Below the pieces are notes generated by a model. The model did not search any database and was not told the DNA's origin. It was given only the letters and a program-made list of their open reading frames with translations. A program made the translations under genes and the position numbers. Of a stretch of 64,000 nucleotides of DNA, positions 12,420 through 42,179 are shown one piece after another. The stretch is taken from assembly GCA_965200205.1 (NCBI GenBank), contig CBDAUI010000002.1, positions 1,449,472 through 1,513,471 of the forward strand, given 5' to 3'. Origin of the DNA: Candidatus Poribacteria bacterium. Its GTDB lineage: Bacteria; Poribacteria; WGA-4E; WGA-3G. Positions within the stretch are counted from its first letter, which is position 1, and each line of letters opens with the position of its first letter.

Positions 12420-12442
12420 AAAAGGTAATAAGGAGGTAACAA

Positions 12443-23192: not shown

Positions 23193-23348
23193 AACGGCAC
23201 ATTCCGATGTCGTTTCAAAAGGGCGTAAATCCCGCGAAAGTTTTTCAGAACGATATGTGAATACGACGCTATTAGGAATGCACAGATCTAAGCAAAAACA
23301 ACTTAGGGCTGGGTAAAAAATTTGGCGTTAAGTCGTAAAACGCTTCCG

Positions 23349-23735
23349 TCAGGAAGCGTTCTCTTCAACTACCGCCTGTGTGTCCGCTTTTGTTTTCAGG
23401 AACTCATAGAACTCATAGAGCGTTTCTTTGTCTTTCTCTGTAAATTCCATCATTCCTTTGAACATAGCATTGACTTTAGGATCCGCCAACAGATCACTGT
23501 AACTTTTTTCAGTTTTTCCGAGCAGATAGTCGGTGGTAACTTTTAGGGCGTCAGAGAGACTTGAGAGTGTTTTAAAGGAAGGTTTTCGGGTCCCGGACTC
23601 GAATTGCGAAATGGCGGCGGGCGTTAGGTTTGCCTCTTTCGCGAGTTCGGTCTGTGTCAACTTCAATTCATGACGACGTGCTTTTATACGTGAGACGACT
23701 TTGTCTACGTTCGGTTGTTTCGATTCTTTGGTCAC
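23349..23735 (-). CDS. XRE-family (Cro/C1-type) helix-turn-helix transcriptional regulator
   Basis: LKLTQTELAKEANLTPAAISQFESGTRKPSFKTLSSLSDAL HTH_3 signature; divergent from the giant operon. Confidence 0.75.
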   Translation of the reverse strand: MTKESKQPNVDKVVSRIKARRHELKLTQTELAKEANLTPAAISQFESGTRKPSFKTLSSLSDALKVTTDYLLGKTEKSYSDLLADPKVNAMFKGMMEFTEKDKETLYEFYEFLKTKADTQAVVEENAS

Positions 23736-23818
23736 GTTTGACTCCTTTTGATCAGAAAGACATCGTTGGACTATCTTCCATTATTTCATTTTTCAGCATC
23801 CCAATAAAATTACAGAGA

Positions 23819-23852
23819 TGGCAAAATTACAGAGATGCAGTTTCAAGAAGTT
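23819..23852. promoter_or_regulatory. tandem 17-bp direct repeat (ggcaaaattacagagat x2) in AT-rich divergent promoter region; candidate operator
   Basis: repeat seen directly; located between XRE regulator start and the giant gene. Confidence 0.4.
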
Positions 23853-24167
23853 TTTGCTACGAAACGAGGCAAAAACGTGAAATATATTTTAACCCAAAAA
23901 GCCTCGAAATGCAAATTTTAATTTAAGTTTGACAAAAATTATAATATTAGGATAAAATATACACATTATTGCTAATATTGTATCAAAAAAGTTTGTATCG
24001 CAGACATTTAAACAAACCAAAATCGAAAAAAATAAGTGAACCGCGTACCATTATACATAGCAGTGTCTTATCTTCGCGGTGTGTGCCTTAGTAGGTAATT
24101 AAAAGAACACTCGCGTATGTACCTTGGAAAGAAGTGAAAAAATAAGGAAAGGTGAGGACTTTACAAT

Positions 24168-27100
24168 ATGAGAATGCGTAGTAGATGTGAATATCGCTCG
24201 CAATGTTTTGTTTCTGTAATCAGTGTGTTGACGTTTTTGGTGTCCGCGCTGTTATTTACCGGATTGTCGAATACGGTGCATGCGCAGACGGTTTCAAGCA
24301 CCGGCATGAAAACCGCTGCGATCCAGATTCGAGATGATCTCTCTATCGGTAACATCCGAAAGGATATTGCCCGTCTTTCGAGTCTTGAGAGCCGCGTAAC
24401 AGGGTATCCCCAAGCCGCAAGCGGGAGTAAGTACATCTTTGACCGCTTCGTAGAAATCGGTTTGCAAAACGTTGAGAGTCGTGAATTTCCGGTCACTGTC
24501 CCGATTGATCACGGTAATAGTGTCGTTGAGGTGCTTTCGCCTGATGCGTCCGTACTGCATACCTTTGAACTCACCCCACTTTGGCCGAACCTTGTACGCA
24601 CTTCACTTTTAGCAGACGCAATTAAACACACTGTATTAGCAGGGGAATCCCTCGAAGACATTGCTCACAGCTTCCAAGTTGATGAAGCCGCTATCCTTGC
24701 AGACGAACGCAACCAATTTTTGGCGACACCTGTGGTTGAAGGGAGTACTGTCTATATCCCGACAGGTGGGTTATCGGGTCCGCTTCTTTACGGTGATGAC
24801 GCTGAACTCGCTGATTTTAACGACACCAATATCGGTGGATTCTGGTACGAACTCCAAGATGGTGATACGCTCACAACGCTCGCACGACGTTACCGTATCA
24901 CTGAAGCCAGCATTACTGACGACATACTCAATGAACACTTGCAAAAAGCGTCCGATGGCATTGATAACGATGAAGACGGCACCATTGATGAATACGGCGA
25001 GATACCGCTGCTCTCGGAGATTCGAGGCTGGGCGACAGACGGTATCGATAACGATGCTGACGGTTGGACAGATGAAGTCCCCGGCGACGATACCGATGGT
25101 ATTGATAATAACAACGATGGACAAGTTGATGAAACAGGCGAATTCATTGCTGCAAGTGAATCAAATGTCTTTATCCCAAAAGGCGCGATTGTCCTCCTCG
25201 ACTTCAACTCCAGTACCCGCTACATTAACGCCGCAATGCTCGGCGGCACCGCAGTCATTTTCATCCAACCTGAAACGACGATTCGAGGCGAAGCGGAAAA
25301 CAAATTTGGCACCGTCCCCGCTAATATCCCACGTTTTTGGATTTCTAAAACAGATGCCGATGTCCTCACGGCTCTGCTTGAAGAACAGCACTCACAAGGT
25401 AATCAGGTCAATGTTCGCGTCCGAGGTAAAATGACTTGGGAACGCCGTGTCGGACAGAACATACGAGGTTTTTTAGAGGGCGGCGATCCAACGCTCAGCG
25501 ATGAACTCGTCGTTATCACAGCCTATTACGATGCTATGTCCGTAGTCCCCGCAATGGCACCCGGTGCGGATCCGACCTGTGGGATCGCAACGCTCATGGA
25601 ACTCGCACGCCTCTTTAGTCAACCCCAGTATCGTCCCGGCTATTCCGTCCTTTTTGTCGCAGTTGATGGACATTTCCAAGGACTCGCTGGTATGCGGGCA
25701 TTCATGGAAGGTATCGGGCAGGATATTGTCGGTGCTGATACAGACTCACCCGGTACACCGACAATGCACGGACTCCGACGCGGCCTCTCTACAGATATTA
25801 TTGAATTTGAGGAACTCGGTAGAAGACTCTTGCTCTCAATTGACCGGAGTGTCCTCGTTGATCTACCCTCCAATTTCTTCCACGGTATACACCAAGTCAA
25901 AGCAGATATCGAATCACTCGGAATAACACTCGACGGTTTAGCAGAGACCCGCGCCGAAATCGACCACCTCACGAATCAACAGCGCGATTTTTCCGAGCGT
26001 CAAAAGAAGCAAGCAGACAGGAATCGGAAACGAGAGAAACAGGGATTTACCGGCGAAGAGAAGAGCCTTTTGTTAGCGAATCTCGCACGTTCAAAGAAAG
26101 AGGCTTTGCAAACAACACACTTCCTTCGAGATGTCGTCGGGAGACTCGCTGAAGTCCGTACAGTCGCGCTCAACACAAGCCGAACCGCTCAAACCGAATT
26201 AATTGAGACAATCGCGCTCCCGACCGCACGGCTTGATGTGTGGGCAGTCAACAAAATTATTCGCGCCGTTGAAGCCGGTGAGGTAGATGAATACGCGAAA
26301 CATCCCAACGATGCCTATCTGCTTCCAGAACAACAAGGCTCAGACTGGTATATCCCCGTACCAGAAGACCTTCCAGAAGAACTCGCCCCTGACATAGAGA
26401 CGCTTAACAGAGTCCTCGCAGATTGGGAGATGAGCGATAAACGCAAATTTGCCCTGATGTGGACTCCCGAAAAAGTACTCGATCGACACCTCGACCTCCA
26501 CAGCCTCAATAAAGCGAAGAAAGCACGTAGCGTCCTAAATGCTGCTCCCGATACACAAGAAAATGCCGTCGAAAAAGAGAAGCAACTCCTCGAAAAAGTG
26601 CTCTCACAAATCTCTGACAGCCAGCCTATAGAAGATGAAATTAAGGCAAGCATCCGCAAACTTAAGGAGACAGCATTGTGGAAAGGTGCTGATGATGGAA
26701 AGCTGCTTTACGGCGGGGAATACCTGTCGAAAGCCGGTGTGGAACGCCTCAACACAATTGACACGCAACTCCGACAACGCTTCGCTGAATCCGATGATAC
26801 CGTTGACACAGGTGTATTGGTTGCAGACTTACTGAAAGATAAGCAGGGGATCTTTGAAATCGCCCTCCGAAACGCGCGATTGGAGCGAACCCGTATCCAG
26901 AATTTGCTAGCCACATCCCAAACGTTAGGACGTGAGTACCTCGCTGAAGAACAACTCATCCTGGAACACTATCTATCGGAGGGTGAGGTGGAACAGGCAC
27001 TTGATCTCCGTTCACGTGTTGCGGCATATATCAATGAAAAAGAGCTGTTAGCAACAGTTAAAAAACGCGCAGAAACGGATCTTGTGGCACTCGACAACCT

Positions 27101-30100
27101 GCTCAAACGTCTGCCAACATTGAATACGGATGTTGATGAAGAGACGAAAAACCTCCTACGCGACAACATGCTAACGCTACGGAATGCTCGCTTCCGCAAC
27201 ATTCAGAGTCGTATTGAAAAGATGTTGCGAATTGATACCGACGAATACAATCGAAAACTCGGACAGATTGAAGCAGCGATCGCACTCCAGGACCTGTTCA
27301 ACCGTTACTACACCTCGCTCTTTATTAGTGTTGACCTCTCCTCCCAATCGGATCAGTTCGGTGTATTCAACAAAGGGTGGTTCTACGATCAAGAACCCGA
27401 ATTTGTGCTCCGGCGTGAGTTTGCAAGTATCGGTAATAAACTTGCAACCTACGCACAAGATGCCGACTTCGGGGTCCGTATCCGTAAACTCTGGCAGTGG
27501 ACAGATGACCAAATTCGACAAGCCGTTATGGCGCGTCAATGGACAGTCGCAAACGGGATTTCTGATAAGGCTGCTCTCGAAGGGAAAACCCTCGAAACTT
27601 TGCTCAGTTCGCATTTCGGTAAACTGACTGGACTCAGCGGTGTCAGCCGTCTCATGAAGATGCAGTTCGAGCAGTGGCGCAATCAAGGCGAACCTTCCGA
27701 GGATATGCTCAAGGACATGGACTATATCCGAAAAGAGGTTGAACGCTTCATCCGAAACGATGTACGCACCGCAAAGAAAAATCGGAAGAACAGCATTCGG
27801 ACGCGCGAGCAGCTTGACGCAATGCTACGACTCCGACATGAAGACCCAGATACCTTTACCGATGATGAAATTGAGGACATCAAAACGCTGATTTCGATTG
27901 CTGGACTCGGCGGACAGTCGAATTTCGTGAACGCCATCTCGGCAAGCGGCGGAAAAACATGGAAAACATACATCCCGGGTAAAATCGCTTTTGATAGTGA
28001 AGTCGCGACGCTTGTCGGAAAAACCGGTATCGCTTTCGCAACGATTGAAGATGCTCGTGTTTTAACCGATACACCGCTTGATACAATTGATCGCGTCGAT
28101 TTACGTGAAGGTGGTAACCTGCATCAGCAGGCACAGACACTCGCATCAATACTCATCCAAGCACTCCGCGACGAAGAGATGCCGACCGCCGCCCGGGTCG
28201 GTAATTTCTATTGTAACTTGTTCGGTGATGTCGTGGAATTTGATGCACGCGAGTCCGCCCTCCCGAATAAACCGGTGCCTTACCCGATATTGACCCTCCG
28301 CAGAAAGCATAAAACCATGATGGGGGTCCGTGGCGACCTGTTTGTTATGGGAGATAACAAAGGCAACTTTGAGGTGCCTGGGTTAGCTATGGAAGGTAGA
28401 GCGACACGTCGCCTCGGTGGTGCACAAGAGGTTGAGGCATATATCCTTGACAAGGATTCAGGCGATATCGTCTACGCGCCAGATTTAGGGAACTACGGCG
28501 CGAAACTACTTCCGAATAAAGTACCTATTAACACGCGTCGCCGCGGCTGCCGTGTCGTTACATTCCCTTGTGTGTCCACAACTATCTATGATCTCGTTGA
28601 CCAGCGATACCTGCGAACCTTGCGAGAACTTGAAATTTACGATGCCCTCACCGATAGTGCACCGGAAAAATTCGGAATGTCCAAACCGTGGCAACAAGAG
28701 GGTGTCTCTGCAGCGGAACCGATCGCACTCGTCTATAGTGAACCGAACACCCGTATTAAAATCGGGATGGCTTATGGGCAAATAGGTAAACGCCTTTTGC
28801 TTATCAAAGCAACGAAGAGTGGTATGAAGAACCCGACGCTCTATACAGGTGAAGGGTTTGTCGTACGTGAAAACGGGCGAATTCGTATGACTCCCTACGT
28901 CGTTGTCCGAGATATGTGGTGGCTTGACGAGAACCGCTCACGCCTCTATAAACGCTTCGGTATCTCCAGCGACCGGCTTGATCAACTCCATCAGTATGCC
29001 AGCGAATATCTTGCACGCGCTGAAACGGCCCTCCTCCAAAATGACTATCAGCAGGCACTCAAACTTGCACGCGCAGCCTGGGGGTACGAATCACGCGCAT
29101 ACCCTGATGTCAAGCAGACCGGTAACGATGTCGTCAACGGCGTGATGTTCTACCTCGCCCTGCTGATGCCGTTCGCCTACTTCATGGAACGTCTCGTTTT
29201 CGGGTTCCCCAACATCCACAAGCAGATTATCGGATCGTTCGGTATCTTTTTACTTGTGTTCTTCTTCTTAAGTCAGGTTCACCCTGCATTCCAGATTACG
29301 ACAACCCCGATAATTATCTTGATCGCGTTTGTTGTACTCGCATTGACAGTTATCGTCATCAGCATTATTATCCGAAAATTTGAAGAGCAGCTCGAAAAAA
29401 TTCGGCAAGAAGGGAACAAGGTTTACAAGGCAGATGTCGGTCGATTGAGCGCAAGTTCCGCAGCGTTTAGCTTGGGAATCTCCAACATGCGGAAACGGAA
29501 AGGACGTACGATCCTGACCTGTTGTACACTGGTCATTCTGACCTTCACTGTCATTTCGTTCACCTCTGTCCGGACATTTATGCATCCGAACAGAACGAGT
29601 CTCCCACAAGTAACACCGCGCTATACAGGACTTCTCATCCGTGACCAATACTGGCGTCCGCTTGAGGAACCGGTATTGACCTCTGTGCGCAACGATATGC
29701 AGAAAACGCAGATCACAGTCCCAGACTTAGAACGGCTCCTGGAACGTAAAAACGAAATTCTTATCAAAGACGGACAACAACCGATCAATATCTCAGAAGC
29801 CATTACAGATTTAGAGCAGGAAGGCTTTATCCAACAGGTAGACGAAGAATCCATCGTGACTGTCAGGAATAGGATTGCCCCGCGCGCGTGGTATCAGTCT
29901 TCGGGTACAGGTGATCAGTCGTTTGTACAGTTGACCCGTACACCGAACGAAATAGATACATCACCACCAACACATCAACTGACAGGTGAAGCACTGACCT
30001 TCGCTGCGAATATGCTCGTCGGGATGGGCGAATCAGAACCGGATGTTACGGGTATTGATAGATACCTGCAATACGGAAAGTGGTTCGATCGTGCTGATGC

Positions 30101-31493
30101 CAGCGAATGGCCCACGGAGTGGCCTTACGCGATTGTTCTCCCGAAAGGGATGGCAGAATTGCTGAAGATTACCGAAAGCGATATGGGTAAAGCGACTGTT
30201 TCTGTTTACGGTGCAGATTTCACCGTCGTCGGCGTGCTCGGTATCGGGTTCAAAGACCTCACCGATAATGACGGCGAAGAACTCACGCCGGTCGATTATC
30301 AGTTGATGCAACAGCAGCGGAGTCGGGGTGCTACTGGCGATGAGACGCTGGAAGGCGAATTGCAGAAATACCTACACCTCACACCAGACAGCATAGCCAT
30401 CCTGCCTTATGAGGTAGTTATGAACCAAGGTGGCACACTCCGAAGTGTCGCCGTTAACATGGAACCGGGAGAAGACGATCCGAAGATGCTCGGTGCTATC
30501 GATAAGTTGGATCTCATCATGGCACCCCTCATGAACCGTATCGCACTCGATTTCTTCGTCGGACGTGATAAAGACACATACCTGTATAGCAGTATCGGGA
30601 TGACGAGTTTCAGCGGGATGGGGAACCTGTTTGTCCCAATTTTGATTGCCGCACTTATTGTCCTTAATACAATGCTCGGCGCAGTCTATGAGCGTGTCCG
30701 AGAAATTAGCATTTACAGTTCAGTCGGTCTTGCACCGGTACATATCGCGTTCCTATTCCTTGCTGAGGCATGCGTATATGCTATCGTCGGTGCTGTCTTG
30801 GGATACCTCATGGGACAGGCAATAGCAACAACGCTTGTCCACTTCGGTTGGCTCGCAGGGTTGACACTCAACTATTCATCGATGTCAACTGTCGTGGCGA
30901 CAATCATCGTCATGATCGTCGTGCTTCTGAGTACGCTTTATCCTGCAATCAAAGCCTCAAGAATGGCTGTCCCAGATATTGAGCGTAAATGGAAGCTCCC
31001 GGAACCGGAAGGCGACGTTTGGCATTTCAACCTGCCTTTCACAGTCCTTGAGGAAGAGGCACTCGGCTTGAACGTCTTTATGCGTGACTATTTTGAAGCG
31101 CACGCGGACGAATCCGCAAGCGATTTCTATACCGATCAGGTCGCCTTCAGCGAAGCAGCGGAAGATTCCTATCAGATCGGTATGATGGTATGGTTGGCAC
31201 CTTATGATTTAGGCGTGAGTCAGTCGATCCAGTTCGTTACATCGCCGGTCGGAGGCGAGGAGGAGGACCTCTACAAAATCACATTGGATGTCAATCGTGA
31301 AAGCGGTGAGATCGCTTCTTGGAAACGTGTGAACCGACGGTTCCTGAACCTCCTACGGAAACAGTTGCTCATCTGGCGTACGTTCAGCGTTGATGTTCGG
31401 GCGGAGTTCCATGAACGCGGTCGGACAGAAAGCACGGAAGCGTCGGAAGCAGAGACAGCACAGATGGATCCAGCATTGACACCGGCGGATTGA
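24168..31493 (+). CDS. giant (2441 aa) exported multidomain protein fused to a MacB/FtsX-type ABC permease. N-terminal signal peptide precedes Ca-binding-like DxDxDG repeats, a degenerate M28-peptidase-like domain and a ~1000-aa coiled coil. A TM bundle then leads into the MacB-like periplasmic domain and FtsX permease helices.
   Basis: signal peptide VLTFLVSALLFTGLSNTVHA; GIDNDEDGTIDE/GIDNDADGWTDE/GIDNNNDGQVDE repeats; M28-like PGADPTCGIATLMELARLF and FVAVDGHFQGLAGMRAF; long heptad-rich region; SLGISNMRKRKGRTILTCCTLVILTFTV (MacB TM1) and C-terminal FtsX-like helices. Confidence 0.8.
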   Translation: MRMRSRCEYRSQCFVSVISVLTFLVSALLFTGLSNTVHAQTVSSTGMKTAAIQIRDDLSIGNIRKDIARLSSLESRVTGYPQAASGSKYIFDRFVEIGLQNVESREFPVTVPIDHGNSVVEVLSPDASVLHTFELTPLWPNLVRTSLLADAIKHTVLAGESLEDIAHSFQVDEAAILADERNQFLATPVVEGSTVYIPTGGLSGPLLYGDDAELADFNDTNIGGFWYELQDGDTLTTLARRYRITEASITDDILNEHLQKASDGIDNDEDGTIDEYGEIPLLSEIRGWATDGIDNDADGWTDEVPGDDTDGIDNNNDGQVDETGEFIAASESNVFIPKGAIVLLDFNSSTRYINAAMLGGTAVIFIQPETTIRGEAENKFGTVPANIPRFWISKTDADVLTALLEEQHSQGNQVNVRVRGKMTWERRVGQNIRGFLEGGDPTLSDELVVITAYYDAMSVVPAMAPGADPTCGIATLMELARLFSQPQYRPGYSVLFVAVDGHFQGLAGMRAFMEGIGQDIVGADTDSPGTPTMHGLRRGLSTDIIEFEELGRRLLLSIDRSVLVDLPSNFFHGIHQVKADIESLGITLDGLAETRAEIDHLTNQQRDFSERQKKQADRNRKREKQGFTGEEKSLLLANLARSKKEALQTTHFLRDVVGRLAEVRTVALNTSRTAQTELIETIALPTARLDVWAVNKIIRAVEAGEVDEYAKHPNDAYLLPEQQGSDWYIPVPEDLPEELAPDIETLNRVLADWEMSDKRKFALMWTPEKVLDRHLDLHSLNKAKKARSVLNAAPDTQENAVEKEKQLLEKVLSQISDSQPIEDEIKASIRKLKETALWKGADDGKLLYGGEYLSKAGVERLNTIDTQLRQRFAESDDTVDTGVLVADLLKDKQGIFEIALRNARLERTRIQNLLATSQTLGREYLAEEQLILEHYLSEGEVEQALDLRSRVAAYINEKELLATVKKRAETDLVALDNLLKRLPTLNTDVDEETKNLLRDNMLTLRNARFRNIQSRIEKMLRIDTDEYNRKLGQIEAAIALQDLFNRYYTSLFISVDLSSQSDQFGVFNKGWFYDQEPEFVLRREFASIGNKLATYAQDADFGVRIRKLWQWTDDQIRQAVMARQWTVANGISDKAALEGKTLETLLSSHFGKLTGLSGVSRLMKMQFEQWRNQGEPSEDMLKDMDYIRKEVERFIRNDVRTAKKNRKNSIRTREQLDAMLRLRHEDPDTFTDDEIEDIKTLISIAGLGGQSNFVNAISASGGKTWKTYIPGKIAFDSEVATLVGKTGIAFATIEDARVLTDTPLDTIDRVDLREGGNLHQQAQTLASILIQALRDEEMPTAARVGNFYCNLFGDVVEFDARESALPNKPVPYPILTLRRKHKTMMGVRGDLFVMGDNKGNFEVPGLAMEGRATRRLGGAQEVEAYILDKDSGDIVYAPDLGNYGAKLLPNKVPINTRRRGCRVVTFPCVSTTIYDLVDQRYLRTLRELEIYDALTDSAPEKFGMSKPWQQEGVSAAEPIALVYSEPNTRIKIGMAYGQIGKRLLLIKATKSGMKNPTLYTGEGFVVRENGRIRMTPYVVVRDMWWLDENRSRLYKRFGISSDRLDQLHQYASEYLARAETALLQNDYQQALKLARAAWGYESRAYPDVKQTGNDVVNGVMFYLALLMPFAYFMERLVFGFPNIHKQIIGSFGIFLLVFFFLSQVHPAFQITTTPIIILIAFVVLALTVIVISIIIRKFEEQLEKIRQEGNKVYKADVGRLSASSAAFSLGISNMRKRKGRTILTCCTLVILTFTVISFTSVRTFMHPNRTSLPQVTPRYTGLLIRDQYWRPLEEPVLTSVRNDMQKTQITVPDLERLLERKNEILIKDGQQPINISEAITDLEQEGFIQQVDEESIVTVRNRIAPRAWYQSSGTGDQSFVQLTRTPNEIDTSPPTHQLTGEALTFAANMLVGMGESEPDVTGIDRYLQYGKWFDRADASEWPTEWPYAIVLPKGMAELLKITESDMGKATVSVYGADFTVVGVLGIGFKDLTDNDGEELTPVDYQLMQQQRSRGATGDETLEGELQKYLHLTPDSIAILPYEVVMNQGGTLRSVAVNMEPGEDDPKMLGAIDKLDLIMAPLMNRIALDFFVGRDKDTYLYSSIGMTSFSGMGNLFVPILIAALIVLNTMLGAVYERVREISIYSSVGLAPVHIAFLFLAEACVYAIVGAVLGYLMGQAIATTLVHFGWLAGLTLNYSSMSTVVATIIVMIVVLLSTLYPAIKASRMAVPDIERKWKLPEPEGDVWHFNLPFTVLEEEALGLNVFMRDYFEAHADESASDFYTDQVAFSEAAEDSYQIGMMVWLAPYDLGVSQSIQFVTSPVGGEEEDLYKITLDVNRESGEIASWKRVNRRFLNLLRKQLLIWRTFSVDVRAEFHERGRTESTEASEAETAQMDPALTPAD

Positions 31494-31582
31494 AGCATAG
31501 CAATCAGCAGTCAGCAATCAGCAGTCTGTGCGTGTTCTAAAGTCTCTTGTAGCTGACTGCAAATTAAAAAAGGACAGAAATC

Positions 31583-31777
31583 GTGGAAAGAGTAGCAGGT
31601 TTTATTATCATCCTTGGCACCTTGTTATGGCTATTTAGTGTTATCGTCTTTGAGGGACGTTGGCAATGGCAAATGTTCTCGGCTCTTGTGCTGACAATTG
31701 GCATCTTCTGTGCGCATTTCTGGGAAGAGTTACGAAACACTGACAGCAGCGAAGAGTCAAGCGACGGACAAGAGTGA
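31583..31777 (+). CDS. possible small 2-TM membrane protein
   Basis: 64-aa ORF with two hydrophobic segments and acidic tail; GGA-rich RBS weak. Confidence 0.3.
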   Translation: MERVAGFIIILGTLLWLFSVIVFEGRWQWQMFSALVLTIGIFCAHFWEELRNTDSSEESSDGQE

Positions 31778-31860
31778 GTTGCCAGAGGCATCAGTTATTA
31801 GGCGGAAGAAAAATAACCTCTTACTGATAACTGATAACTAAGAAAAGGAGAACATTCAAC

Positions 31861-33849
31861 TTGGCGAGAGAAAGAGTATCACAAGCAGATGAATGGCAAG
31901 CTTGGGCGCAGCGATACGACATTGAAGGCGGTATCCGTACCTTTGAGTCGGGGTTGACGGTTAAAGTGTTCGTCGGAGCACTCTTCGTCGGCTTGTTGAT
32001 GATGCCAGGCTCCATCTATCTCGGTTATGTATCCGGCGAATCCGGTGCGGGCGCAGCACCCTGGGTTGCGGTTATTCTATTCACCGAACTCGCGCGGCGC
32101 TCCTTTACAACCGCCCGGCGGCAAGAACTCTATATGCTCCTCGGTTTAACCGGGGCAGCTGTCGGGAGCGGGATGCAGTACCGGAGTTTTATCTGGTACG
32201 CCTACTTTATCAATACCCCGCAGGCGGCTTCTTACGAAATCGCAGATAAAATACCGGCGTGGGTTGTACCCGCAGGTGATTCTGTCGGTGTGCTAACCCG
32301 GAGCCTGTTACACCCCGATTGGATGCTGCCTATCGGTATCTACCTCGCGGGAAAACTCCTCGGCACTTTGCGATCTGTTAGTGCACAGTATATCCTGTTC
32401 CGACTTACAGCAGACCTCGAACGGCTGCCGTATCCGATGGCACCTATTACCGCACAGGGCGCAACCGCACTCGCAGAAACAACAGGTAAAGAAGAGACTT
32501 GGCGATGGCGGGTCTTCTCTATCGGTTCTATGGCAGGACTCATCTGGGGGTTCCTCTATATCGGTGTTCCATCGCTTACCGGGGTCATGATGAGCACCCC
32601 AATTCAGATCCTGAAAATCCCGTGGATAGATTTTACGCAGAGCATTGAAGGCTTCGCACCGACAGGTGTTTTCGCACTCCGAACCGATTTCGGACAAATG
32701 CTCTTCGGGTTCGTGCTGCCGTTCCCGATCGTAATGACAGAGTTCATCGCCGCAATGGCGACGCAATTCGTCTTGAACCCACAAATCCTCTACCGATTTG
32801 AAATACTCCACCAGTGGAAACCTGGATTGGACGTTCGCGCCGTCGGTCTGTACAACGGACTCGACTTCTGGATGTCCGCTGGCATGGGGAAATCTTTCAG
32901 TTTCGCAATCGTCGGGATGGCGGCTTCGATTCCGATGCTCTTTAAAATGCGGAGATCCAAGAAAACCGCAGGCGAACGCGGCTCCTTCGCACCACCACCA
33001 AATCGAGGCGATTTCCCGATATGGTTGATGGGATTGTTGTGGCTCGTCGGTATGGGTGGGTTCGTCTGGCTTATCCATTGGATGGTGCCTAATTTCCCAT
33101 TGAGTTTCTTGTTAGGCTTCGCGTTCCTATACACACCGCTCAACTCGTATATCACCGCACGGACTTTCGGAGTCTTAGGGCGAGACCTATTTGATATACC
33201 GTACCTCCACGAAATTACCTTTATCCTGAGTCGATACGAGGAGGTAGACATCTGGTTCGCACCGCTGCCTGACGAAGATTACGGACGCGGCACACAGAGC
33301 TGGCGAGTACTTGAATTGACAGGTACAACTTTCACCTCAAATCTTGCTGGCACACTACTGATTATGCCGATTCTAATTGTCAGTGGTATTGTGGTGATGC
33401 ACTTTATCTGGAAAATCGCACCGATCCCGAGTGCACAGTATCCTTATGCACAGATGATGTGGCCCATCAACGCTACAAACGAGTGTCTCTGGAAAACGTC
33501 ACTGCGAGATGGAAATAGCCAGATGCTGCAAGCGATTCGCGGCGATTATGTCGCCGCCGGGTTTACTGGAAGTCTCGCCATCTACGGGATGTTGTGGTAC
33601 TTCAAACTCCCCTCAATGTGGTTCTACGGCATTGTCGGTGGTATCGGAGCTGATCCCGGTAGTATGGTTGCCCGACTACTCGGGGCAATCATCGGGCGCT
33701 TCTATATGATTAAGCGGTTCGGTATGAAACGCTGGTATATGTTCAACCCGGTACTCGCAGCAGGATTCGCTTGTGGCGTGGGTCTCATCGGTATGGGAAC
33801 CGTCGCAATCGCGCTCGTCTCGAAAGCTGTCATTGTTAAACCGTTTTGA
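31861..33849 (+). CDS. large polytopic integral membrane protein (>=12 predicted TM helices), family unknown (possibly oligopeptide-transporter-like)
   Basis: 662 aa, many hydrophobic helices, AAGGAG RBS; in operon downstream of giant permease fusion. Confidence 0.55.
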   Translation: MARERVSQADEWQAWAQRYDIEGGIRTFESGLTVKVFVGALFVGLLMMPGSIYLGYVSGESGAGAAPWVAVILFTELARRSFTTARRQELYMLLGLTGAAVGSGMQYRSFIWYAYFINTPQAASYEIADKIPAWVVPAGDSVGVLTRSLLHPDWMLPIGIYLAGKLLGTLRSVSAQYILFRLTADLERLPYPMAPITAQGATALAETTGKEETWRWRVFSIGSMAGLIWGFLYIGVPSLTGVMMSTPIQILKIPWIDFTQSIEGFAPTGVFALRTDFGQMLFGFVLPFPIVMTEFIAAMATQFVLNPQILYRFEILHQWKPGLDVRAVGLYNGLDFWMSAGMGKSFSFAIVGMAASIPMLFKMRRSKKTAGERGSFAPPPNRGDFPIWLMGLLWLVGMGGFVWLIHWMVPNFPLSFLLGFAFLYTPLNSYITARTFGVLGRDLFDIPYLHEITFILSRYEEVDIWFAPLPDEDYGRGTQSWRVLELTGTTFTSNLAGTLLIMPILIVSGIVVMHFIWKIAPIPSAQYPYAQMMWPINATNECLWKTSLRDGNSQMLQAIRGDYVAAGFTGSLAIYGMLWYFKLPSMWFYGIVGGIGADPGSMVARLLGAIIGRFYMIKRFGMKRWYMFNPVLAAGFACGVGLIGMGTVAIALVSKAVIVKPF

Positions 33850-33853
33850 TATT

Positions 33854-33892
33854 AGTTATAAGTTGTTGGTTATAAGTTGTTGGTTTAAGAGG
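33854..33892. repeat. TTATAAGTTGTTGG-type repeat element (left inverted repeat)
   Basis: agttataagttgttggttataagttgttggtttaagagg; reverse-complement partner at 34397..34428. Confidence 0.6.
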
Positions 33893-33971
33893 TTTTTTGT
33901 GACAGGCTCGTTTAATGTAGCTGCCACAAAAACCCTCTTAACTAACATCTCTCCATTTGGTAGTTAAGAGG

Positions 33972-34358
33972 TATGCAAGATTTCAAGAAGTTGACGGTTT
34001 GGAAAAAATCTCATGATTTAACTATGAGAGTATATAATCTCATGATTTAACTATGAGAGTATATAATTTAACATCCCAATTCCCTCGTGAAGAGATATAT
34101 GGGCTTACAAGCCAAATCCGGCGCGCGTCTACTTCAATTCCAACGAACATTGCCGAGGGATGTGGAAGAAAGAGTTCTGCTGAATTCGCGCGTTTTCTTC
34201 AGATCGCAATAGGTTCAACGAGTGAAACAGAGTAGCTCCTTTTTCTTGCGCATGATCTTAAATATCTCGATTCTGATCAATATGATCAGTTACAGGATAT
34301 GATTATCAGCGTGAAGAAGATGCTAATTACCTTATTAAAAAGACTCGAAACCTAGAAT
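33972..34358 (+). pseudogene. four-helix-bundle protein (23S rRNA intervening-sequence protein family, TIGR02436-like) pseudogene disrupted by a 29-bp tandem duplication and a second frameshift
   Basis: MQDFKKLTVWKKSHDLTMRVYNL..., EIYGLTSQIRRASTSIPTNIAEG, and C-terminal ...IISVKKMLITLLKRLET in three different frames; duplicated ctcatgatttaactatgagagtatataat creates in-frame TAA. Confidence 0.6.
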
Positions 34359-34396
34359 CCGGTTATACTACAAGAGGCATCCTTCTAATCAGAAAC

Positions 34397-34428
34397 CTCT
34401 TTAACTTATAACTTATAACTTATAACTA
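34397..34428. repeat. TTATAAG-type repeat element (right inverted repeat, reverse orientation)
   Basis: cctctttaacttataacttataacttataact is approximate reverse complement of 33854..33892. Confidence 0.6.
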
Positions 34429-34435
34429 TTAAAAA

Positions 34436-35473
34436 ATGGATTGGACTGTTTTTGGCTGGGCGGGAATACAACTTGAAATCCCTACGACATGGGAACTGAG
34501 TGGTCTCAGTGGTGATCAGAAGACGGGGTATCTCCGGCTTGATGACGGTGAGATGCCGCGCCTCGAACTCAAATGGGCACCTACCCGAAAGAAAAAACCG
34601 GATCTCCACTCAACGCTTGACGAATACTTCAAGTTGATTCGCAAAACCTATAAAAGAGGCACCGACCTCTCCTTCCGCCGGAATGTTGACCTGATCAAAG
34701 ACGCTGCGTTTTTTGAGGGACGCACCGTGCTCGGTTTTAGCTGGAAGGGGAGTATCCGTGCCAACGGGTTGATCTTCCACGCAGGAAAACGGATTACAAT
34801 CGTACAGGTGATGGGACGCCTTAAAGAGAACTGGAGACCGACAGTACTACGGGTCTTTCAATCTATTATAGACCGCAGTGATGACCCGCTGACATTGTGG
34901 AGTGCCTACGGTCTGAAGTTGGGCGTACCAAAAGAATATAAATTGGAACGTCAGAAACTTCTCAGCGGCTACCTGCTGTTCGCGTTCGGCGCGAAACCGT
35001 CACGCTTTCAGATACCGATAAAAATAGCGAAATTGGCAGCGCACCGTCTACGAAAAACTGACGGTCCTCTGGGAAAAATAGACTTCTCACCACCCGACAG
35101 AGGACGCCTGAGCGTCGAGCGATACGGTCCAGCTGAAGTCATGCTCGGTGACTATAAAGACACACAGAATCCACTGGAGGCATGGTTTCGCGTCAAATAC
35201 GCAAAAGCGATTCGCGGATACGGGTTTGAGGTGTCAACTGACACAGAGACAGAAGATGAACGCCTGACACTTATCGGAGAACAGACACGCCTCTATGACA
35301 GTGTTCCCTTCAGCCCAGTGCTGATGTTCGATAAACTATCCAAGCGGACGGCACTTGTGTTCCATCTCTGGCATTGTCATCATTCCAATCGTATCTATGT
35401 CATCCAGTCTATCGGTAGTAACAACGCGCACCCGACAGTCGAAAAAGTCGCTAACAGTATTGAATGCCATTAA
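34436..35473 (+). CDS. hypothetical soluble protein (345 aa)
   Basis: continuous ORF in the operon; no recognisable motifs. Confidence 0.5.
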   Translation: MDWTVFGWAGIQLEIPTTWELSGLSGDQKTGYLRLDDGEMPRLELKWAPTRKKKPDLHSTLDEYFKLIRKTYKRGTDLSFRRNVDLIKDAAFFEGRTVLGFSWKGSIRANGLIFHAGKRITIVQVMGRLKENWRPTVLRVFQSIIDRSDDPLTLWSAYGLKLGVPKEYKLERQKLLSGYLLFAFGAKPSRFQIPIKIAKLAAHRLRKTDGPLGKIDFSPPDRGRLSVERYGPAEVMLGDYKDTQNPLEAWFRVKYAKAIRGYGFEVSTDTETEDERLTLIGEQTRLYDSVPFSPVLMFDKLSKRTALVFHLWHCHHSNRIYVIQSIGSNNAHPTVEKVANSIECH

Positions 35474-35525
35474 TAGTTGTCAGTTATAATAGAGTTTGAA
35501 AATATATTTACACTTTGACAGACAG

Positions 35526-35560
35526 TATCCCCCAATGCAGGCGGAGTTTGTAACCCCGCT
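35526..35560. repeat. REP-like intergenic hairpin element (TGCAGGCGGAGTTTGTAACCCCGC)
   Basis: same motif family as 11536, 21121, 36151. Confidence 0.5.
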
Positions 35561-35671
35561 ACTGTAAAATTAATTACGGGCTTTACTATAAAGAAAACTG
35601 ATTGCATCAGATTTCTGTTTAACCTAAGACTGATAACTAAAGATCAATAACCTTTTCCTGATTGGTAAAAA

Positions 35672-36133
35672 ATGATCAATAGACTCTTATATACTCTCAG
35701 ACTTAAGAAACGTCCTGATGTGGATCGCACGCAGGTTATGAAGTCTTTTCCGGTTCGGAATCAGGTCATAAATTGGGAAATAGACGACAAAGGCGAAGCC
35801 TCACTGGTCATTCCGCAGAAGGATAAACTCTGGATACGGCTCGCCGGTAGGTTTTTTATGCTGCCTGATAAAAGGGTGATTGTCTTAGATTCCATCGGAA
35901 CTTATGTGTGGAAGATGTGTGACGGCAAACATACGATCTCGCAAATTGTCAAAGGTGTACAAAACCAGTACCAGTTGACGCGCAAAGAGGCGGAAACATC
36001 GCTTTTTACGTTTATGCAGCAACTCGGAAAAAGGAACTTCATCCAGTTCGCTATCCCAGAACAGAACGCACACGCGACACCGGAATCCGAACCTCAAAAA
36101 CCGGGAATCTTTGGCTTCCTACAGCGGCGATAG
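35672..36133 (+). CDS. PqqD-like protein (RiPP recognition element fold)
   Basis: VIVLDSIGTYVWKMCDGKHTISQIVKGVQNQYQLTRKEAETSLFTFMQQLGKRNFIQF matches the PqqD winged-helix pattern. Confidence 0.55.
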   Translation: MINRLLYTLRLKKRPDVDRTQVMKSFPVRNQVINWEIDDKGEASLVIPQKDKLWIRLAGRFFMLPDKRVIVLDSIGTYVWKMCDGKHTISQIVKGVQNQYQLTRKEAETSLFTFMQQLGKRNFIQFAIPEQNAHATPESEPQKPGIFGFLQRR

Positions 36134-36150
36134 TATAGCATTTACGCAAC

Positions 36151-36176
36151 CCCCCTGCAGGCGGGGTTTATTGACG
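36151..36176. repeat. REP-like element, partial (CCCCCCTGCAGGCGGGGTTTATT)
   Basis: shares CTGCAGGCGGGGTTT core with other copies. Confidence 0.4.
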
Positions 36177-36194
36177 ATCAGCAAGGAGAAAAAA

Positions 36195-37007
36195 ATGAAC
36201 GAACAAACAGAAATGGGGAATATTGAAGCAGCTTTCGCCGAAACACCGGAACGTTTCGAGCGTCTACTTCCCAAAGAGAACACAGTCCGTGTCCGAAACC
36301 TCATCAAACGCTACGAGATGGGGACACAGACCGTCGATGCCCTCCGCGGTGTCAATTTCCAAATCCAGCGCGGTGAATACATCTCTATCATGGGTCCCTC
36401 CGGTTCAGGAAAATCGACGCTCTTCAATATGATTGGCGGCCTCGACAAACCGACTGAAGGCAGAGTCTACATCGACGAGGTAGACATCGCACAACTCGAT
36501 GCTTACGAACTCGCATGGCTCCGCTGCCGAAAAATCGGCTACATTTTTCAGTCGTTCAACCTCATCCCAGTTATGACGGCACTCGAAAACGTCTCACTCC
36601 CGATGATTTTCGCCGGTATGAGTGCCGACGACAGCAGAGAAAAAGGTGTTGATCTCCTGACGCTCGTTGGACTCGGAGACCGTGTACAGCATAAACCGTT
36701 GGAACTCTCCGGTGGACAGCAGCAGCGCGTCGCAATCGCACGCTCCCTCGCAAACGACCCCGCGATTGTCCTCGCCGATGAACCCACCGGAAACCTTGAC
36801 ACCAAAACAGGTTTAGAAATTATTGATCTACTCCGTCGTCTCAACGCTGAAAATGGTGTGACAATTATCACGGCGACACACGACCACAAGATGTTAGATG
36901 TTTCCGACCGTATCTTCCACATGGAGGACGGTAAAGTCGATAAAATCGAATCGCGCGATGAAATTGATCTACAAGTCGGTAAATTAGACGGCGAAGAGGT
37001 AGGATAA
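36195..37007 (+). CDS. ABC transporter ATP-binding protein, MacB/LolD/FtsE-like
   Basis: Walker A GPSGSGKST, signature LSGGQQQRVAIARSL, Walker B ILADEPTGNLD; AAGGAG RBS before MNEQ. Confidence 0.85.
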   Translation: MNEQTEMGNIEAAFAETPERFERLLPKENTVRVRNLIKRYEMGTQTVDALRGVNFQIQRGEYISIMGPSGSGKSTLFNMIGGLDKPTEGRVYIDEVDIAQLDAYELAWLRCRKIGYIFQSFNLIPVMTALENVSLPMIFAGMSADDSREKGVDLLTLVGLGDRVQHKPLELSGGQQQRVAIARSLANDPAIVLADEPTGNLDTKTGLEIIDLLRRLNAENGVTIITATHDHKMLDVSDRIFHMEDGKVDKIESRDEIDLQVGKLDGEEVG

Positions 37008-37011
37008 ATAG

Positions 37012-37040
37012 TTTTTAGTTTTAGTTATAAGTTTTTAGTT
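37012..37040. repeat. TTATAAG-type repeat element (third copy, forward orientation)
   Basis: agttataagtttttagttaagagg. Confidence 0.5.
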
Positions 37041-37130
37041 AAGAGGCTGCCGAGGGTTTACGATTTCTTTCTAACCGTTGTGAGCCACTTGCGTATGGAG
37101 GATTACCAAAAAGTGTTCAGCAATCCCAGC

Positions 37131-37162
37131 CCAGACTTATAACTTATAACCAACAACTTATA
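37131..37162. repeat. TTATAAG-type repeat element (fourth copy, reverse orientation)
   Basis: cttataacttataaccaacaacttataacc = reverse complement of ggttataagttgttggttataagttataag. Confidence 0.6.
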
Positions 37163-37173
37163 ACCATTAAAAG

Positions 37174-38301
37174 ATGAATATCTATGAACGCTTAGGCATC
37201 CGCACAGTGATTAACGGCAATGCAACGCTCACACGACTCGGAGGCTCCATTATGCCATCCGAGGTTGTCGCTGCGATGGCTGATGCTTCTAAGCACTTCG
37301 TAGACATCATCGAACTCCAAAAACGCGTCGGTGAAGAGATCGCAAAACGCACCCACAACGAAGCAGCTTATGTCTCTTGTGGTGCCGCCGCTGCCCTAAC
37401 CCTCAGCACTGCCGCGTGTATCACCGGACTGGATCCAACCAAACGTGAGAAATTACCGCATCTTGACGCGTCTATGAAAAGCGAAGTCATTGTCCATCGC
37501 CACGGTCGCGTCGGATACGATTTCGCCGTACGTCAGGTCGGTGTCACATTCGTGGAGATCGGCGACAAAAACGGAACAATGCCTGACGAATTAGAAGACG
37601 CTATCACTGAGAAAACCGCTGCGATCTTCTATTTTGCCAACCCCGGCAGAGAGCATCTCTGGGTCCCATACAAAGAAGCCATCGCAATCGCTAAAAGACA
37701 CGGTGTCCCACTCATCGTTGATGCTGCTGCGCAGCTACCACCCCCTGAAAACCTCTGGCGTTTCACGCAGATGGGCGCGGATTTAGCACTCTTCAGCGGT
37801 GGGAAAGGGTTGTGTGGACCCCAAAGCAGCGGACTGATCGTCGGAAATAAATCGTTGATTGAGGCAATCACTTTCAATGGACCCCCGCACCCTTTCATCG
37901 GCAGAGGTATGAAAGTGGGTAAGGAAGAATTGATTGGACTCCTCGCTGCTGTAGAGTGGTACTTGGGACAAAACCACGAGGAATTACAGCAGGCTTATGA
38001 AGATCAGGTTACCTATTACAACGAAGTTTTCACAGATATCCAAGGCGTTACAGTCCATCGCAGTTTCCCTTCCGAGGCTGGGCAGCCGATGCCACGCACC
38101 GAAATCAAATTTGACGAGGAACAACTCGGTATCACACGGAATGAAATCCTTCAACAACTCGCGGAAGGCGAACCCCCAATCGACATTGCAGGCGCAGGCA
38201 CGAACGGTGTCCTCATTAATGGACAAACCCTGATGCCCGGAGAAATAGAAATTATCACGCAAAGACTAATGGAGATTATTTTAAACTCGCGCAAGCTTTA
38301 A
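37174..38301 (+). CDS. PLP-dependent SelA-like / DgaE-family enzyme (tentative)
   Basis: N-terminus LGIRTVINGNATLTRLGGS and size ~375 aa resemble SelA-like aminotransferase-fold proteins; unverified. Confidence 0.45.
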   Translation: MNIYERLGIRTVINGNATLTRLGGSIMPSEVVAAMADASKHFVDIIELQKRVGEEIAKRTHNEAAYVSCGAAAALTLSTAACITGLDPTKREKLPHLDASMKSEVIVHRHGRVGYDFAVRQVGVTFVEIGDKNGTMPDELEDAITEKTAAIFYFANPGREHLWVPYKEAIAIAKRHGVPLIVDAAAQLPPPENLWRFTQMGADLALFSGGKGLCGPQSSGLIVGNKSLIEAITFNGPPHPFIGRGMKVGKEELIGLLAAVEWYLGQNHEELQQAYEDQVTYYNEVFTDIQGVTVHRSFPSEAGQPMPRTEIKFDEEQLGITRNEILQQLAEGEPPIDIAGAGTNGVLINGQTLMPGEIEIITQRLMEIILNSRKL

Positions 38302-38466
38302 AGAACAGTCTCCGCTTTCTAACTATGGGCACTTGGGGATGCGCGCCATTACATTACGAAAACTTCTTGATAGGTTCCAGCAGCCGTAATGAAATGGAGG
38401 CGAACCTACAGAGAGGAACGTTGGTTGTTCAACACACCTGAACGAACCGCAAGGAATAATTAAAAA

Positions 38467-39177
38467 ATGAGACTTAACAACGGTATTCGCCTGACATGGC
38501 TCGGACATTCGACTTTCAAAATCGTAGCGGACAGACAAACACTCCTCATCGACCCATGGGTAACAAACAACCCTGTCTGTCCCGATGCACTCAAAACCTT
38601 TGACGCACTTGACGTAATTCTCATAACACACGGGCACGCCGACCACATTGGTGACGCTGTACCACTCGCTAAAAAACATTCGCCGACAGTCGTATCTATC
38701 GTCGAAATCGCCGGATGGCTCGATAAACAAGGCGTTGACAACGCAATCGGGATGAACAAGGGTGGCACTGTTACTGTCGCTGGCATAAAGGCGACGATGG
38801 TTTCAGCGAACCATAGCAGCAGCTTCACAGAAGAAGACGGCACAACGGTATATCTGGGTGAACCGGCAGGTTACGTGATTGAATTTGCTAACGGCTACAA
38901 AATCTACCACGCCGGAGATACGAATGTTTTCGGAGACATGCGGATTATCGGTGAGATTTACGAACCCGATCTGGCACTCCTCCCAATCGGCGATCATTTC
39001 ACAATGGGACCGCGTGAAGCCGCGTACGCCGCGCAATTGCTCAATGTACCGGCGATCCTACCCATCCATTACGGCACCTTCCCACTACTAACAGGAACAC
39101 CAGAAGAACTCCGTCAACTAACAGCTTCTCAAGATGTGGAAATTGTCACATTAGCAGTCGGGGAAACTTTAGATTAA
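38467..39177 (+). CDS. metal-dependent hydrolase, metallo-beta-lactamase fold (UPF0173-like)
   Basis: LTWLGHSTFKI, LIDPW, HGHADH motifs. Confidence 0.8.
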   Translation: MRLNNGIRLTWLGHSTFKIVADRQTLLIDPWVTNNPVCPDALKTFDALDVILITHGHADHIGDAVPLAKKHSPTVVSIVEIAGWLDKQGVDNAIGMNKGGTVTVAGIKATMVSANHSSSFTEEDGTTVYLGEPAGYVIEFANGYKIYHAGDTNVFGDMRIIGEIYEPDLALLPIGDHFTMGPREAAYAAQLLNVPAILPIHYGTFPLLTGTPEELRQLTASQDVEIVTLAVGETLD

Positions 39178-42178: not shown

Positions 42179-42179
42179 G

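Follow-up and report, generated by a model that had tools for sequence, protein, structure and literature searches.

A widespread protein family joins a PA-M28 aminopeptidase-like head to a MacB/LolC-type permease and has an enlarged form in Candidatus Poribacteria

The subject of this work is a giant gene at 24168..31493 (plus strand), and the operon that it heads, in a 64,000-nucleotide window from a Candidatus Poribacteria genome (NCBI GenBank assembly GCA_965200205.1, contig CBDAUI010000002.1, positions 1,449,472 to 1,513,471 of the forward strand). The gene is genuine and encodes a real 2,441-residue membrane protein of this sponge symbiont. We found that this protein is the Poribacteria-specific, enlarged form of a large, widespread and uncharacterised protein family. 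Its members share one order of parts: a secreted PA-M28 aminopeptidase-like head, a β-sandwich, three transmembrane (TM) helices, a complete permease of the MacB/LolC type and a cytoplasmic tail of ~160 amino acids (aa).

The giant gene is genuine and belongs to a widespread family

The giant gene is a single uninterrupted open reading frame (ORF) of 2441 aa. Chance alone would come nowhere near to keeping 2441 codons open at ~49% GC, and the GC content is even along the whole frame. A public protein search returned full-length relatives in more than 120 protein clusters (2378 to 2474 aa, 69 to 100% identity), and those relatives that are named come from Candidatus Poribacteria metagenome-assembled genomes. 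The giant architecture is present at full length in more than 40 independent Poribacteria assemblies, with identity down to ~50%. In a scan of species genomes (one genome per species), we found 44 Poribacteria-type loci, several of them on closed chromosomes, with similarity along the entire length. A preliminary description of this DNA, made from the sequence alone, had allowed that the ORF might be an assembly chimera or contain a frame change near nucleotides (nt) 29000-29500. Full-length copies in many genomes and whole-length similarity exclude this. The region encodes a conserved transition from the β-sandwich to the TM helices that is present in all family members, and shorter homologues cross the junction as a single polypeptide. 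We therefore give almost no weight to an artefact of any kind (assembly chimera, fused pseudogene or chance ORF), for which only the unusual length and domain mix speak, and against which stands an architecture repeated in independent assemblies with its identity spread from end to end.

An exhaustive search with aa 1242-2441 gave 1,334 family clusters at 50% identity (E ≤ 1e-30), mostly of 1,450 to 1,900 aa and 35 to 50% identical over the full 1,200 residues of the query, and the species-genome scan placed the family in at least 577 species genomes. The taxa among the 80 of these loci that were kept include Armatimonadota, Latescibacterota, Omnitrophota, WS1, Nitrospirota, Ca. Zipacnadia, Ca. 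Hebobacteria and Fervidibacter, among others. Members from outside Poribacteria are ~1,450 to 1,700 aa long, and most or all of the helical insert described below is missing from them. Some members carry other decorations, such as Big_5 Ig-like repeats and, in one member, a parvulin peptidyl-prolyl isomerase (PPIase) insert. In an Armatimonadota subgroup (~1,650 aa), an apparent helix-like insert of ~170 aa, judged by eye from the consensus line, occupies the Poribacteria insert site. Public names for family members are "FtsX-like permease family protein," "M28 family peptidase," "LysM ... protein" and "hypothetical"; cluster look-ups gave no informative name. The preliminary description had not recognised the architecture from any characterised system, and in the literature and databases searched we likewise found no characterised system or published description that matches it.

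The ectodomain holds one PA-M28 aminopeptidase-like domain split by Poribacteria-specific insertions

The giant protein is made up of the following parts.

24168..24287, plus strand: signal-peptide-like N-terminus (aa 1-40); sequence and Kyte-Doolittle scan
24624..25178, plus strand: LysM-like module 1 (aa ~153-197) and module 2 (aa ~225-337), with acidic repeats; Pfam LysM
25173..25715, plus strand: PA domain (aa 336-399) and first M28 half (aa 431-516); Pfam and alignments to AAP, 2ek8 and Nicalin
25716..27296, plus strand: helical insertion 1 (aa 517-1043), inside the M28 fold; not in non-Poribacteria members, AlphaFold2 (AF2)
27297..27497, plus strand: middle M28 segment (aa 1044-1110), with strand SLFISVDLS and Asp1056, equivalent to AAP Asp179
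27498..27917, plus strand: helical insertion 2 (aa 1111-1250), Poribacteria-specific; family alignment and AF2
27918..28172, plus strand: C-terminal M28 segment (aa 1251-1335), GIAFAT..D.R..TDTPLDT, with Asp1301 in place of the last His ligand
28209..28787, plus strand (range of the β-sandwich): β-sandwich (aa ~1348-1540), then a helical hairpin (aa 1576-1623); AF2 and Foldseek
29130..29366, plus strand: three extra TM helices (aa 1655-1733); hydropathy and invariant alignment columns
29439..30968, plus strand: MacB/LolC-type permease unit (aa 1758-2267); Pfam, PDB sequence matches, AF2/Foldseek and hydropathy
31017..31490, plus strand: cytoplasmic C-terminal α/β domain (aa 2284-2441, ~160 aa, WLAPYDLGVS motif); conservation and AF2

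The N-terminus resembles a Sec signal peptide: basic residues in the n-region precede a hydrophobic core (aa 13-31), and the junction TVHA/QT comes next. Pfam LysM matched two stretches, at 2.4e-7 on an N-terminal fragment and weakly on the full protein. The second LysM-like module is interrupted at aa ~263-320 by three acidic repeats of the DxDxDG kind (DGIDNxxDGxxDE, read off the sequence), for which no matching repeat family was found. Pfam also placed Peptidase_M28 at aa 431-514 (2.4e-7) and, weakly, PA at aa 336-399; the first M28 half carries the motifs AYYDA, PGAD and GHFQGL.

We aligned the giant protein with 25 distant family representatives. Some 852 residues of the window protein proved to be lineage-specific (aa 149-197, 223-337, 517-1043, 1111-1250 and 1846-1898), the first two of these stretches being the LysM region, which is missing from all 25 representatives. 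Once the lineage-specific stretches were removed, the family consensus formed one contiguous PA-M28 aminopeptidase-like domain. In the PDB, the family profile matched the Aneurinibacillus PA-M28 aminopeptidase 2ek8 (1.5e-27) and B. subtilis YwaD (1.5e-23); it also matched AAP (1.7e-12, chain residues 75-181, including Asp179) and Nicalin (3e-10 over ~360 profile positions). The head is therefore a single M28 fold with a PA insertion, interrupted in Poribacteria by further insertions.

These Poribacteria-specific insertions, of ~530 and ~140 aa, amount to ~670 aa of long-helix material in total. In the AF2 models, insertion 1 contains long helices at aa 568-618, 629-702, 879-915 and 938-984 and a small helical bundle at aa 737-834, with a predicted local distance difference test (pLDDT) score of 80 to 93 across much of it; insertion 2 contains a long helix at aa 1184-1222. 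The modelled helices reach 74 residues. A crude, weak test for heptads gave no strong canonical signal and none above shuffled controls, and we therefore refer to these elements as long helical inserts and not as coiled coil. Among the Poribacteria loci, the helical insert is the least conserved of three parts (29 to 49% identity where the C-terminal part has 62 to 81%), and its length is nearly constant, at ~474 to 514 aa. A fast-evolving sequence of steady length fits a spacer or stalk. Foldseek with a model of aa 425-1624 aligned only ~90 M28 residues, because the insert breaks the alignment; the β-sandwich region gave local matches to Ole e 1, pilin and transthyretin-like domains (probability 0.89 to 0.97). 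Pfam scans of the isolated segments aa 530-1081, 1080-1421, 1420-1701 and 2265-2441 found nothing significant.

Most parts listed in the preliminary description were recovered by these analyses: the signal peptide, the M28-like domain with substituted residues and, as detailed below, the complete MacB/FtsX permease, with the peptidase-like domain and permease in one polypeptide. Its calcium-binding-like repeats are present as a motif, without a family match to go with them. The coiled coil of ~1000 aa that it placed between the M28 domain and the permease has to be given up, as the helical regions (aa ~517-1043 and ~1111-1250) are insertions inside the M28 fold. A continuous coiled coil over aa 560-1600 is ruled out, since M28 segments, the β-sandwich and TM helices lie between or after the helical inserts.

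The M28 metal site is replaced by conserved residues

Comparison with AAP placed the residues of the metal site as follows, with conservation in the family alignment.

AAP His97 (metal ligand): Tyr453; Tyr or Phe in the family
AAP Asp99: Asp455; invariant (26/26)
AAP Asp117 (metal ligand): Asp468, kept; Glu or Asp in 22/26, and Glu in most relatives
AAP Glu151 (catalytic): His502; invariant (26/26)
AAP Glu152 (metal ligand): Phe503; mostly Phe in the family
AAP Asp179 (metal ligand): Asp1056, kept (25/26)
AAP His256 (metal ligand): Asp1301 (23/26), with VDTPLDT aligned to YHTPNDT

The co-catalytic zinc ligand set His-Asp-Glu-Asp-His and the catalytic Glu are thus not preserved. By this alignment, the canonical di-zinc site is absent and the head departs from the canonical di-zinc aminopeptidases. 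At four of the six catalytic or ligand positions, the PA-M28 aminopeptidases (2ek8; YwaD, 6hc6; AAP, 1amp) have His, Glu, Glu and His where the present domain has Tyr, His, Phe and Asp; this domain is also tethered to an ABC (ATP-binding cassette) permease and, in Poribacteria, split by large insertions. Eukaryotes have non-catalytic M28-fold subunits with unrelated membrane partners, namely, Nicalin, Nicastrin, the transferrin receptor (TfR) and GPAA1. In contrast to that group, the replaced residues here are strongly conserved, and a catalytic or metal-binding role may persist. That the replacements are kept across phyla speaks for a pocket that still has a function, through altered metal binding or ligand binding, and against decay. 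The domain would accordingly not be "degenerate," as it had first been called, in the sense of simple decay. The conserved replacement of an M28 di-zinc site by Tyr, His, Phe and Asp provides a defined and testable case of peptidase-fold reuse.

A complete MacB/LolC-type permease makes up the C-terminal third

The three extra TM helices that precede the permease are highly conserved across phyla, with the motifs ERL and VHPAF, and take the chain from the outside to the cytoplasm. The permease unit that follows consists of an amphipathic N-helix, TM1 (aa 1781-1799), a periplasmic domain that spans aa ~1800-2150 and contains a local insert (aa 1846-1898), and TM2 to TM4 (aa 2155-2257), the TM helices being placed by hydropathy. 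The loop between TM2 and TM3 carries a coupling-helix motif, ERVREIS, which aligns with ERTKEIG of MacB. Pfam FtsX matched aa 2156-2266 at 8.2e-12, above its gathering score, and the best PDB sequence matches of the C-terminal third were chains of LolC (1.7e-8), MacB (4e-7), YtrF and LolF. The AF2 model of aa 1242-2441 has a pLDDT of 80 to 90 over the permease part, and Foldseek matched this model to MacB (4e-12) as well as to LolC/E, HrtB, YbbP and BceB. Pfam MacB_PCD scored only 1.8e-3, below its gathering score; in Foldseek, the model matched the isolated MacB/LolE periplasmic domains 5c59, 5lj8 and 5udf with a probability of 1.0 (E of 6e-4 to 1e-3). The C-terminal third is thus a complete permease of the MacB/LolC type (type VII ABC), with a 4-TM FtsX unit and a large MacB_PCD-type domain. 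For the C-terminal α/β domain that follows, no known family was found in Pfam or the PDB.

The giant gene has a conserved ATPase and a near-constant polytopic partner

In the window, the giant gene is followed by genes for a 64-aa protein, a 662-aa polytopic protein, a 345-aa protein, a PqqD-like protein and an ATPase. Locus L001, a 70%-identical relative, has the same order with different flanking genes, which sets the limits of the operon.

23349..23735, minus strand: XRE-type helix-turn-helix (HTH) protein, divergent, a possible regulator whose membership in the module is uncertain; Pfam HTH_3, 3.6e-16
31583..31777, plus strand: 64-aa small membrane protein, kept only in Poribacteria operons
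31861..33849, plus strand: 662-aa polytopic membrane protein; synteny, and weak OPT matches in a few members
34436..35473, plus strand: 345-aa soluble protein that co-occurs with the PqqD-like gene; synteny
35672..36133, plus strand: PqqD-like small protein of the RRE (RiPP recognition element) type, RiPP being a ribosomally synthesized and post-translationally modified peptide; Pfam PqqD and synteny
36195..37007, plus strand: LolD/MacB/FtsE-class ABC ATPase, 270 aa; profile matches and synteny

The ATPase matched LolD (1.2e-70) and also DevA, YbbA, MacB and FtsE profiles, and it has all motifs of a nucleotide-binding domain. The 271-aa homologue in L001 supports ATG 36195 as its start codon, and copies 65 to 94% identical occur in the same operons across phyla. 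It is thus a conserved cognate partner of the giant permease. Both this pairing and the membership of the intervening polytopic and PqqD-like genes in the module had been proposed in the preliminary description and are upheld by the conserved operon; the homologous fusions and conserved neighbourhood that it suggested looking for exist as well, with operon order and partners recurring around the family clusters described above.

We counted the polytopic partner at loci with at least 2.5 kb of flank and the other partners at loci with at least 6.5 kb. A polytopic partner lies directly downstream of the giant gene at 39 of 43 Poribacteria-type loci and at 23 of 29 other loci, with gaps mostly below 200 nt in the latter. 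The ATPase is present at 34 of 41 Poribacteria-type loci versus 13 of 23 others, the 345-aa protein at 37 of 41 versus 8 of 23 and the PqqD-like protein at 36 of 41 versus 9 of 23. Across the family, the counterparts of the 345-aa protein measure 300 to 345 aa. Since they and the PqqD-like proteins are missing from most loci outside Poribacteria, we regard both as accessory. The reverse distribution was seen for a small FtsX half-permease (4-TM, ~210 to 285 aa), which is encoded at none of the 41 Poribacteria-type loci (34 of them with the ATPase) and at 12 of the 23 others (13 with the ATPase), and which adjoins the ATPase gene wherever the pair was inspected. Its absence suggests a homodimeric engine in Poribacteria. 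No MacA/HlyD adaptor, TolC-type factor or cell-wall hydrolase gene was found in the annotated neighbourhoods (the window, L001, L049, L054, L070 and L082 to L084).

The 662-aa protein has no PDB sequence match. A precomputed PF03169 match exists for 4 of 120 of its homologues, and some members of its family bear the NCBI name "peptide transporter." Loci without a partner of this type tend to encode another one: at 10 of 11 checked, the giant gene adjoins a gene for a 610- to 663-aa DUF6785+DUF6784 membrane protein (E of 1e-95 to 1e-134 in two scanned copies, the others being tblastn relatives of those two). The 11 loci include L056, which is too short for the main counts; the short locus L080 has neither partner. 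The giant genes with this partner form a paralogous branch (L016, L021, L022 and L032 in Poribacteria; L055, L056, L065, L070, L077 and L079 elsewhere). One genome can hold both kinds of pair, as L030 and L032 show by sharing a Poribacteria contig.

The PqqD-like protein contains a PqqD domain (PF05402, 8.3e-12; 45.7 bits against a cut-off of 23.4), and its matches to NCBIfam models of the PqqD family all fall below their cut-offs. Neither Pfam nor the PDB has a match for the 345-aa protein, and it shows no relation to the C-terminal domain of the giant protein; the 345-aa family has conserved Cys/His positions, and the window copy lacks the CxxC pair of its relatives. Most Poribacteria loci carry the HTH gene, 67 to 93% identical, on the upstream side of the giant gene, at a distance that varies.

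Several minor features of the operon region were also recorded. Insertions of 2 to 4.5 kb lie between operon genes in L002, L008, L013, L015, L018, L027, L038, L039 and L084, with the order kept; in L002 a 3.9-kb gap separates the PqqD-like and ATPase genes, and in L084 a nucleotidyltransferase/HepT toxin-antitoxin pair lies between the giant gene and its membrane partner. Broken ORFs occupy 33970..34240 (plus strand) between the 662-aa and 345-aa genes, with MRVYNL duplicated at the frame break. They presumably resemble a four-helix-bundle/23S rRNA intervening-sequence protein, and no such element is present at the equivalent position in L001. At four non-Poribacteria loci (L054 17060..17791, L082 9657..10253, L083 17214..18002 and L084 17885..19235), a protein with a prepilin-type N-methylation motif follows the polytopic partner, usually with SBP_bac_10/DUF1559; such families are abundant in those genomes and the adjacency may be chance. 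A near-consensus sigma-70-like promoter (TTGACA, 18-nt spacer, TAAAAT) lies at 23929..23958 (plus strand), in the intergenic region between the divergent genes and ~210 nt before the giant ORF. Promoter and terminator scans gave no excess over shuffled expectation, and an Rfam scan of 23000..38500 found nothing.

Proposed function and alternative explanations

The giant protein and its ATPase share with type VII ABC systems (MacB, LolCDE, FtsEX, HrtBA, BceAB and YbbAP) the 4-TM FtsX unit, the large periplasmic domain between TM1 and TM2, the coupling helix and a separate ATPase of the LolD/MacB class. The asymmetric pairing of giant and small FtsX outside Poribacteria recalls LolC/LolE, or the paired halves of BceB and YbbP (PMC5985334). 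The giant protein differs from these systems in having ~1,650 extracytoplasmic residues and three conserved TM helices before the permease unit, a conserved cytoplasmic domain after it and a near-obligate polytopic partner, with no adaptor, TolC, LolA or EnvC-type partner gene. YbbAP-TesA offers a precedent for a type VII ABC system that works with a hydrolase (PMC12646458). It likewise combines a type VII engine with an extracytoplasmic part of hydrolase fold that is thought to receive substrates (PMC12646458); TesA is an esterase/thioesterase, whereas here the hydrolase-like part is fused to the permease and has an M28 fold with a non-canonical site.

We favour, with a probability of about 40%, a type VII ABC mechanotransmission machine that has a fused M28-like head and a polytopic partner and that acts on a peptide-like substrate in the envelope, probably in the outward direction. 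By analogy with MacB, LolCDE, FtsEX and YbbAP (PMC5985334, PMC7668044, PMC12646458), the ATPase dimer would bind and hydrolyse ATP, and the coupling helix and TM helices would carry the resulting motion to the periplasmic domain and the fused head. The conserved acidic/His pocket of the head (Asp455, Asp/Glu468, His502, Asp1056 and Asp1301) probably binds or processes the peptide-like substrate, and the polytopic partner probably passes that substrate across the membrane or holds it there. An outward role, such as extraction, hand-over or release, seems preferable because this is how known type VII systems work and because the accessory PqqD-like protein lies in the cytoplasm. In Poribacteria, the LysM modules, acidic repeats and ~670 aa of helices may form a stalk that spans the periplasm or engages peptidoglycan. 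The weak OPT matches, the PqqD match above its gathering score and the parvulin PPIase insert of one member are what we count toward a peptide.

Several observations weigh against this proposal. Substrate, direction and catalytic competence of the family are what we infer from the features above. The two AF2 models are of moderate quality (mean pLDDT of 66 and 72; predicted template modelling score of 0.41 and 0.48). The 662-aa protein of the window has no match in Pfam or NCBIfam, and the few homologues that touch OPT do so weakly (PF03169 in 1 of 17 and 2 of 41, at best 1e-5; TIGR00728 in 2 of 17, 1.3e-7). A relation between its family and DUF6785 received an hhalign probability of 44% in one run and 8% in another. 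No precursor-peptide gene is evident, in that no small precursor-like ORF is conserved. The small FtsX of other phyla was looked for in Poribacteria only within ~10 kb of the operon, and most non-Poribacteria loci have neither the PqqD-like nor the 345-aa protein.

The preliminary description saw here a collapsed EnvC-FtsEX module, that is, a single-chain analogue of FtsEX-EnvC or FtsEX-PcsB in which a coiled coil relays ATP-driven motion to a degenerate peptidase domain that activates a separate cell-wall hydrolase. The two systems do share an ATP-driven FtsX unit of type VII ABC fold with a cognate ATPase, a peptidase-fold domain without canonical catalytic residues and, in the Poribacteria version, long helices, and FtsEX-EnvC itself operates by ATP-driven relief of autoinhibition (PMC7668044). 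This much of the analogy stands: an FtsX/MacB engine, accompanied by its ATPase, carries a fused peptidase domain of non-canonical type. The two LysM-like modules, of peptidoglycan-binding type, would also allow a peptidoglycan link, and with it an EnvC-like model, in the Poribacteria lineage only. However, EnvC and PcsB are separate proteins that dock on FtsX by a coiled coil, carry a LytM/M23 or CHAP domain and act on or with amidases, whereas the domain here is an M28 fold, its substituted residues are conserved and not decayed, and the annotated loci have no conserved amidase or hydrolase gene, the conserved neighbour being a transporter-like membrane protein. A hydrolase partner might still be encoded at some other place in the genome. 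Orthology to FtsE/FtsX is not supported either, since FtsX_actino scores 2.2e-4 (20.7 bits against a cut-off of 250), FtsE scores 213 bits against 265, and these models do no better than those of LolC/LolD or MacB. The idea of a collapsed EnvC-FtsEX depends on the coiled coil and is unsupported because this element, like the LysM modules, is a Poribacteria-specific insertion missing from most of the family, and it lies within the M28 fold and is not a linker to the permease. We consider such an analogue unlikely, and we rate about equally low the chance that the system harvests and imports peptides or metal chelates, with the head as a receptor or trimming enzyme and the ABC engine releasing cargo into an importing OPT-like partner. 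OPT/YSL transporters are importers, the head is homologous to aminopeptidases and to the receptor-type M28 proteins TfR and Nicalin, and the weak OPT similarity and the name "peptide transporter" point the same way. The OPT assignment is weak, however, and the cytoplasmic PqqD-like and 345-aa proteins suit export or maturation better; moreover, a review knows of no type VII ABC system that drives import (PMC5985334).

Export could also take the form of a RiPP-like pathway, in which the PqqD (RRE) and 345-aa proteins bind or modify a precursor, the membrane partner and MacB-type unit export it and the head trims the leader. The PqqD domain, the conserved Cys/His positions in the 345-aa family and the resemblance of the ATPase to DarD, the ATPase of the darobactin exporter (4.3e-65, below the cut-off of that model), would fit. 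We found neither a precursor gene nor a recognisable modifying enzyme; the 345-aa protein matches no family, its window copy lacks the CxxC pair, and the restricted distribution of both accessory proteins counts here too, so that we think this somewhat less probable again than import. A tripartite efflux pump of the MacAB-TolC kind with unusual decoration, which MacB as the closest solved structure might suggest, is very improbable, as no HlyD/MacA or TolC-like gene accompanies the operon in the annotated neighbourhoods listed above.

Taking the favoured mechanotransmission machine further, we tentatively suggest, though the odds are against it, that the family represents a new class of envelope machine. 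In this class, a type VII ABC engine would be permanently wired to an M28-like head and a dedicated channel-like partner (OPT-like or DUF6785/6784), and the three would both process a peptide or protein substrate and move it across the inner membrane or out of it, with the Poribacteria stalk and LysM modules linking it to peptidoglycan. If true, such a division of labour among engine, head and partner has not been described for any ABC system. Type VII ABC systems make up a short list of well-studied machines (MacB, LolCDE, FtsEX, BceAB and YbbAP), each defined by its periplasmic partner, and this family adds a partner domain fused to the permease, a near-constant second large membrane protein, three conserved extra TM helices and a conserved tail domain. 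It is abundant, occurs mostly in little-cultivated phyla and is wholly uncharacterised. The gain of a helical stalk and LysM modules and the loss of the small FtsX make Poribacteria a natural experiment in the remodelling of such a machine.

Other features of the window

A GmrSD-type restriction endonuclease is encoded at 12443..14296 (plus strand; GmrSD_N 1e-36, GmrSD_C 5e-17) in a low-GC stretch at ~12000..16000 (41% versus ~49%), which resembles an acquired defence island. Upstream of the operon lie a 1354-aa ORF without a Pfam match at 16596..20660 (plus strand) and a DUF350 membrane protein gene at 20678..21097 (plus strand), both kept only in close Poribacteria relatives. A separate ABC system, unrelated to the giant operon, occupies 41147..46152 (minus strand), with an ABC_tran ATPase at 41147..42178 and an ordinary 411-aa FtsX-type permease at 44917..46152.

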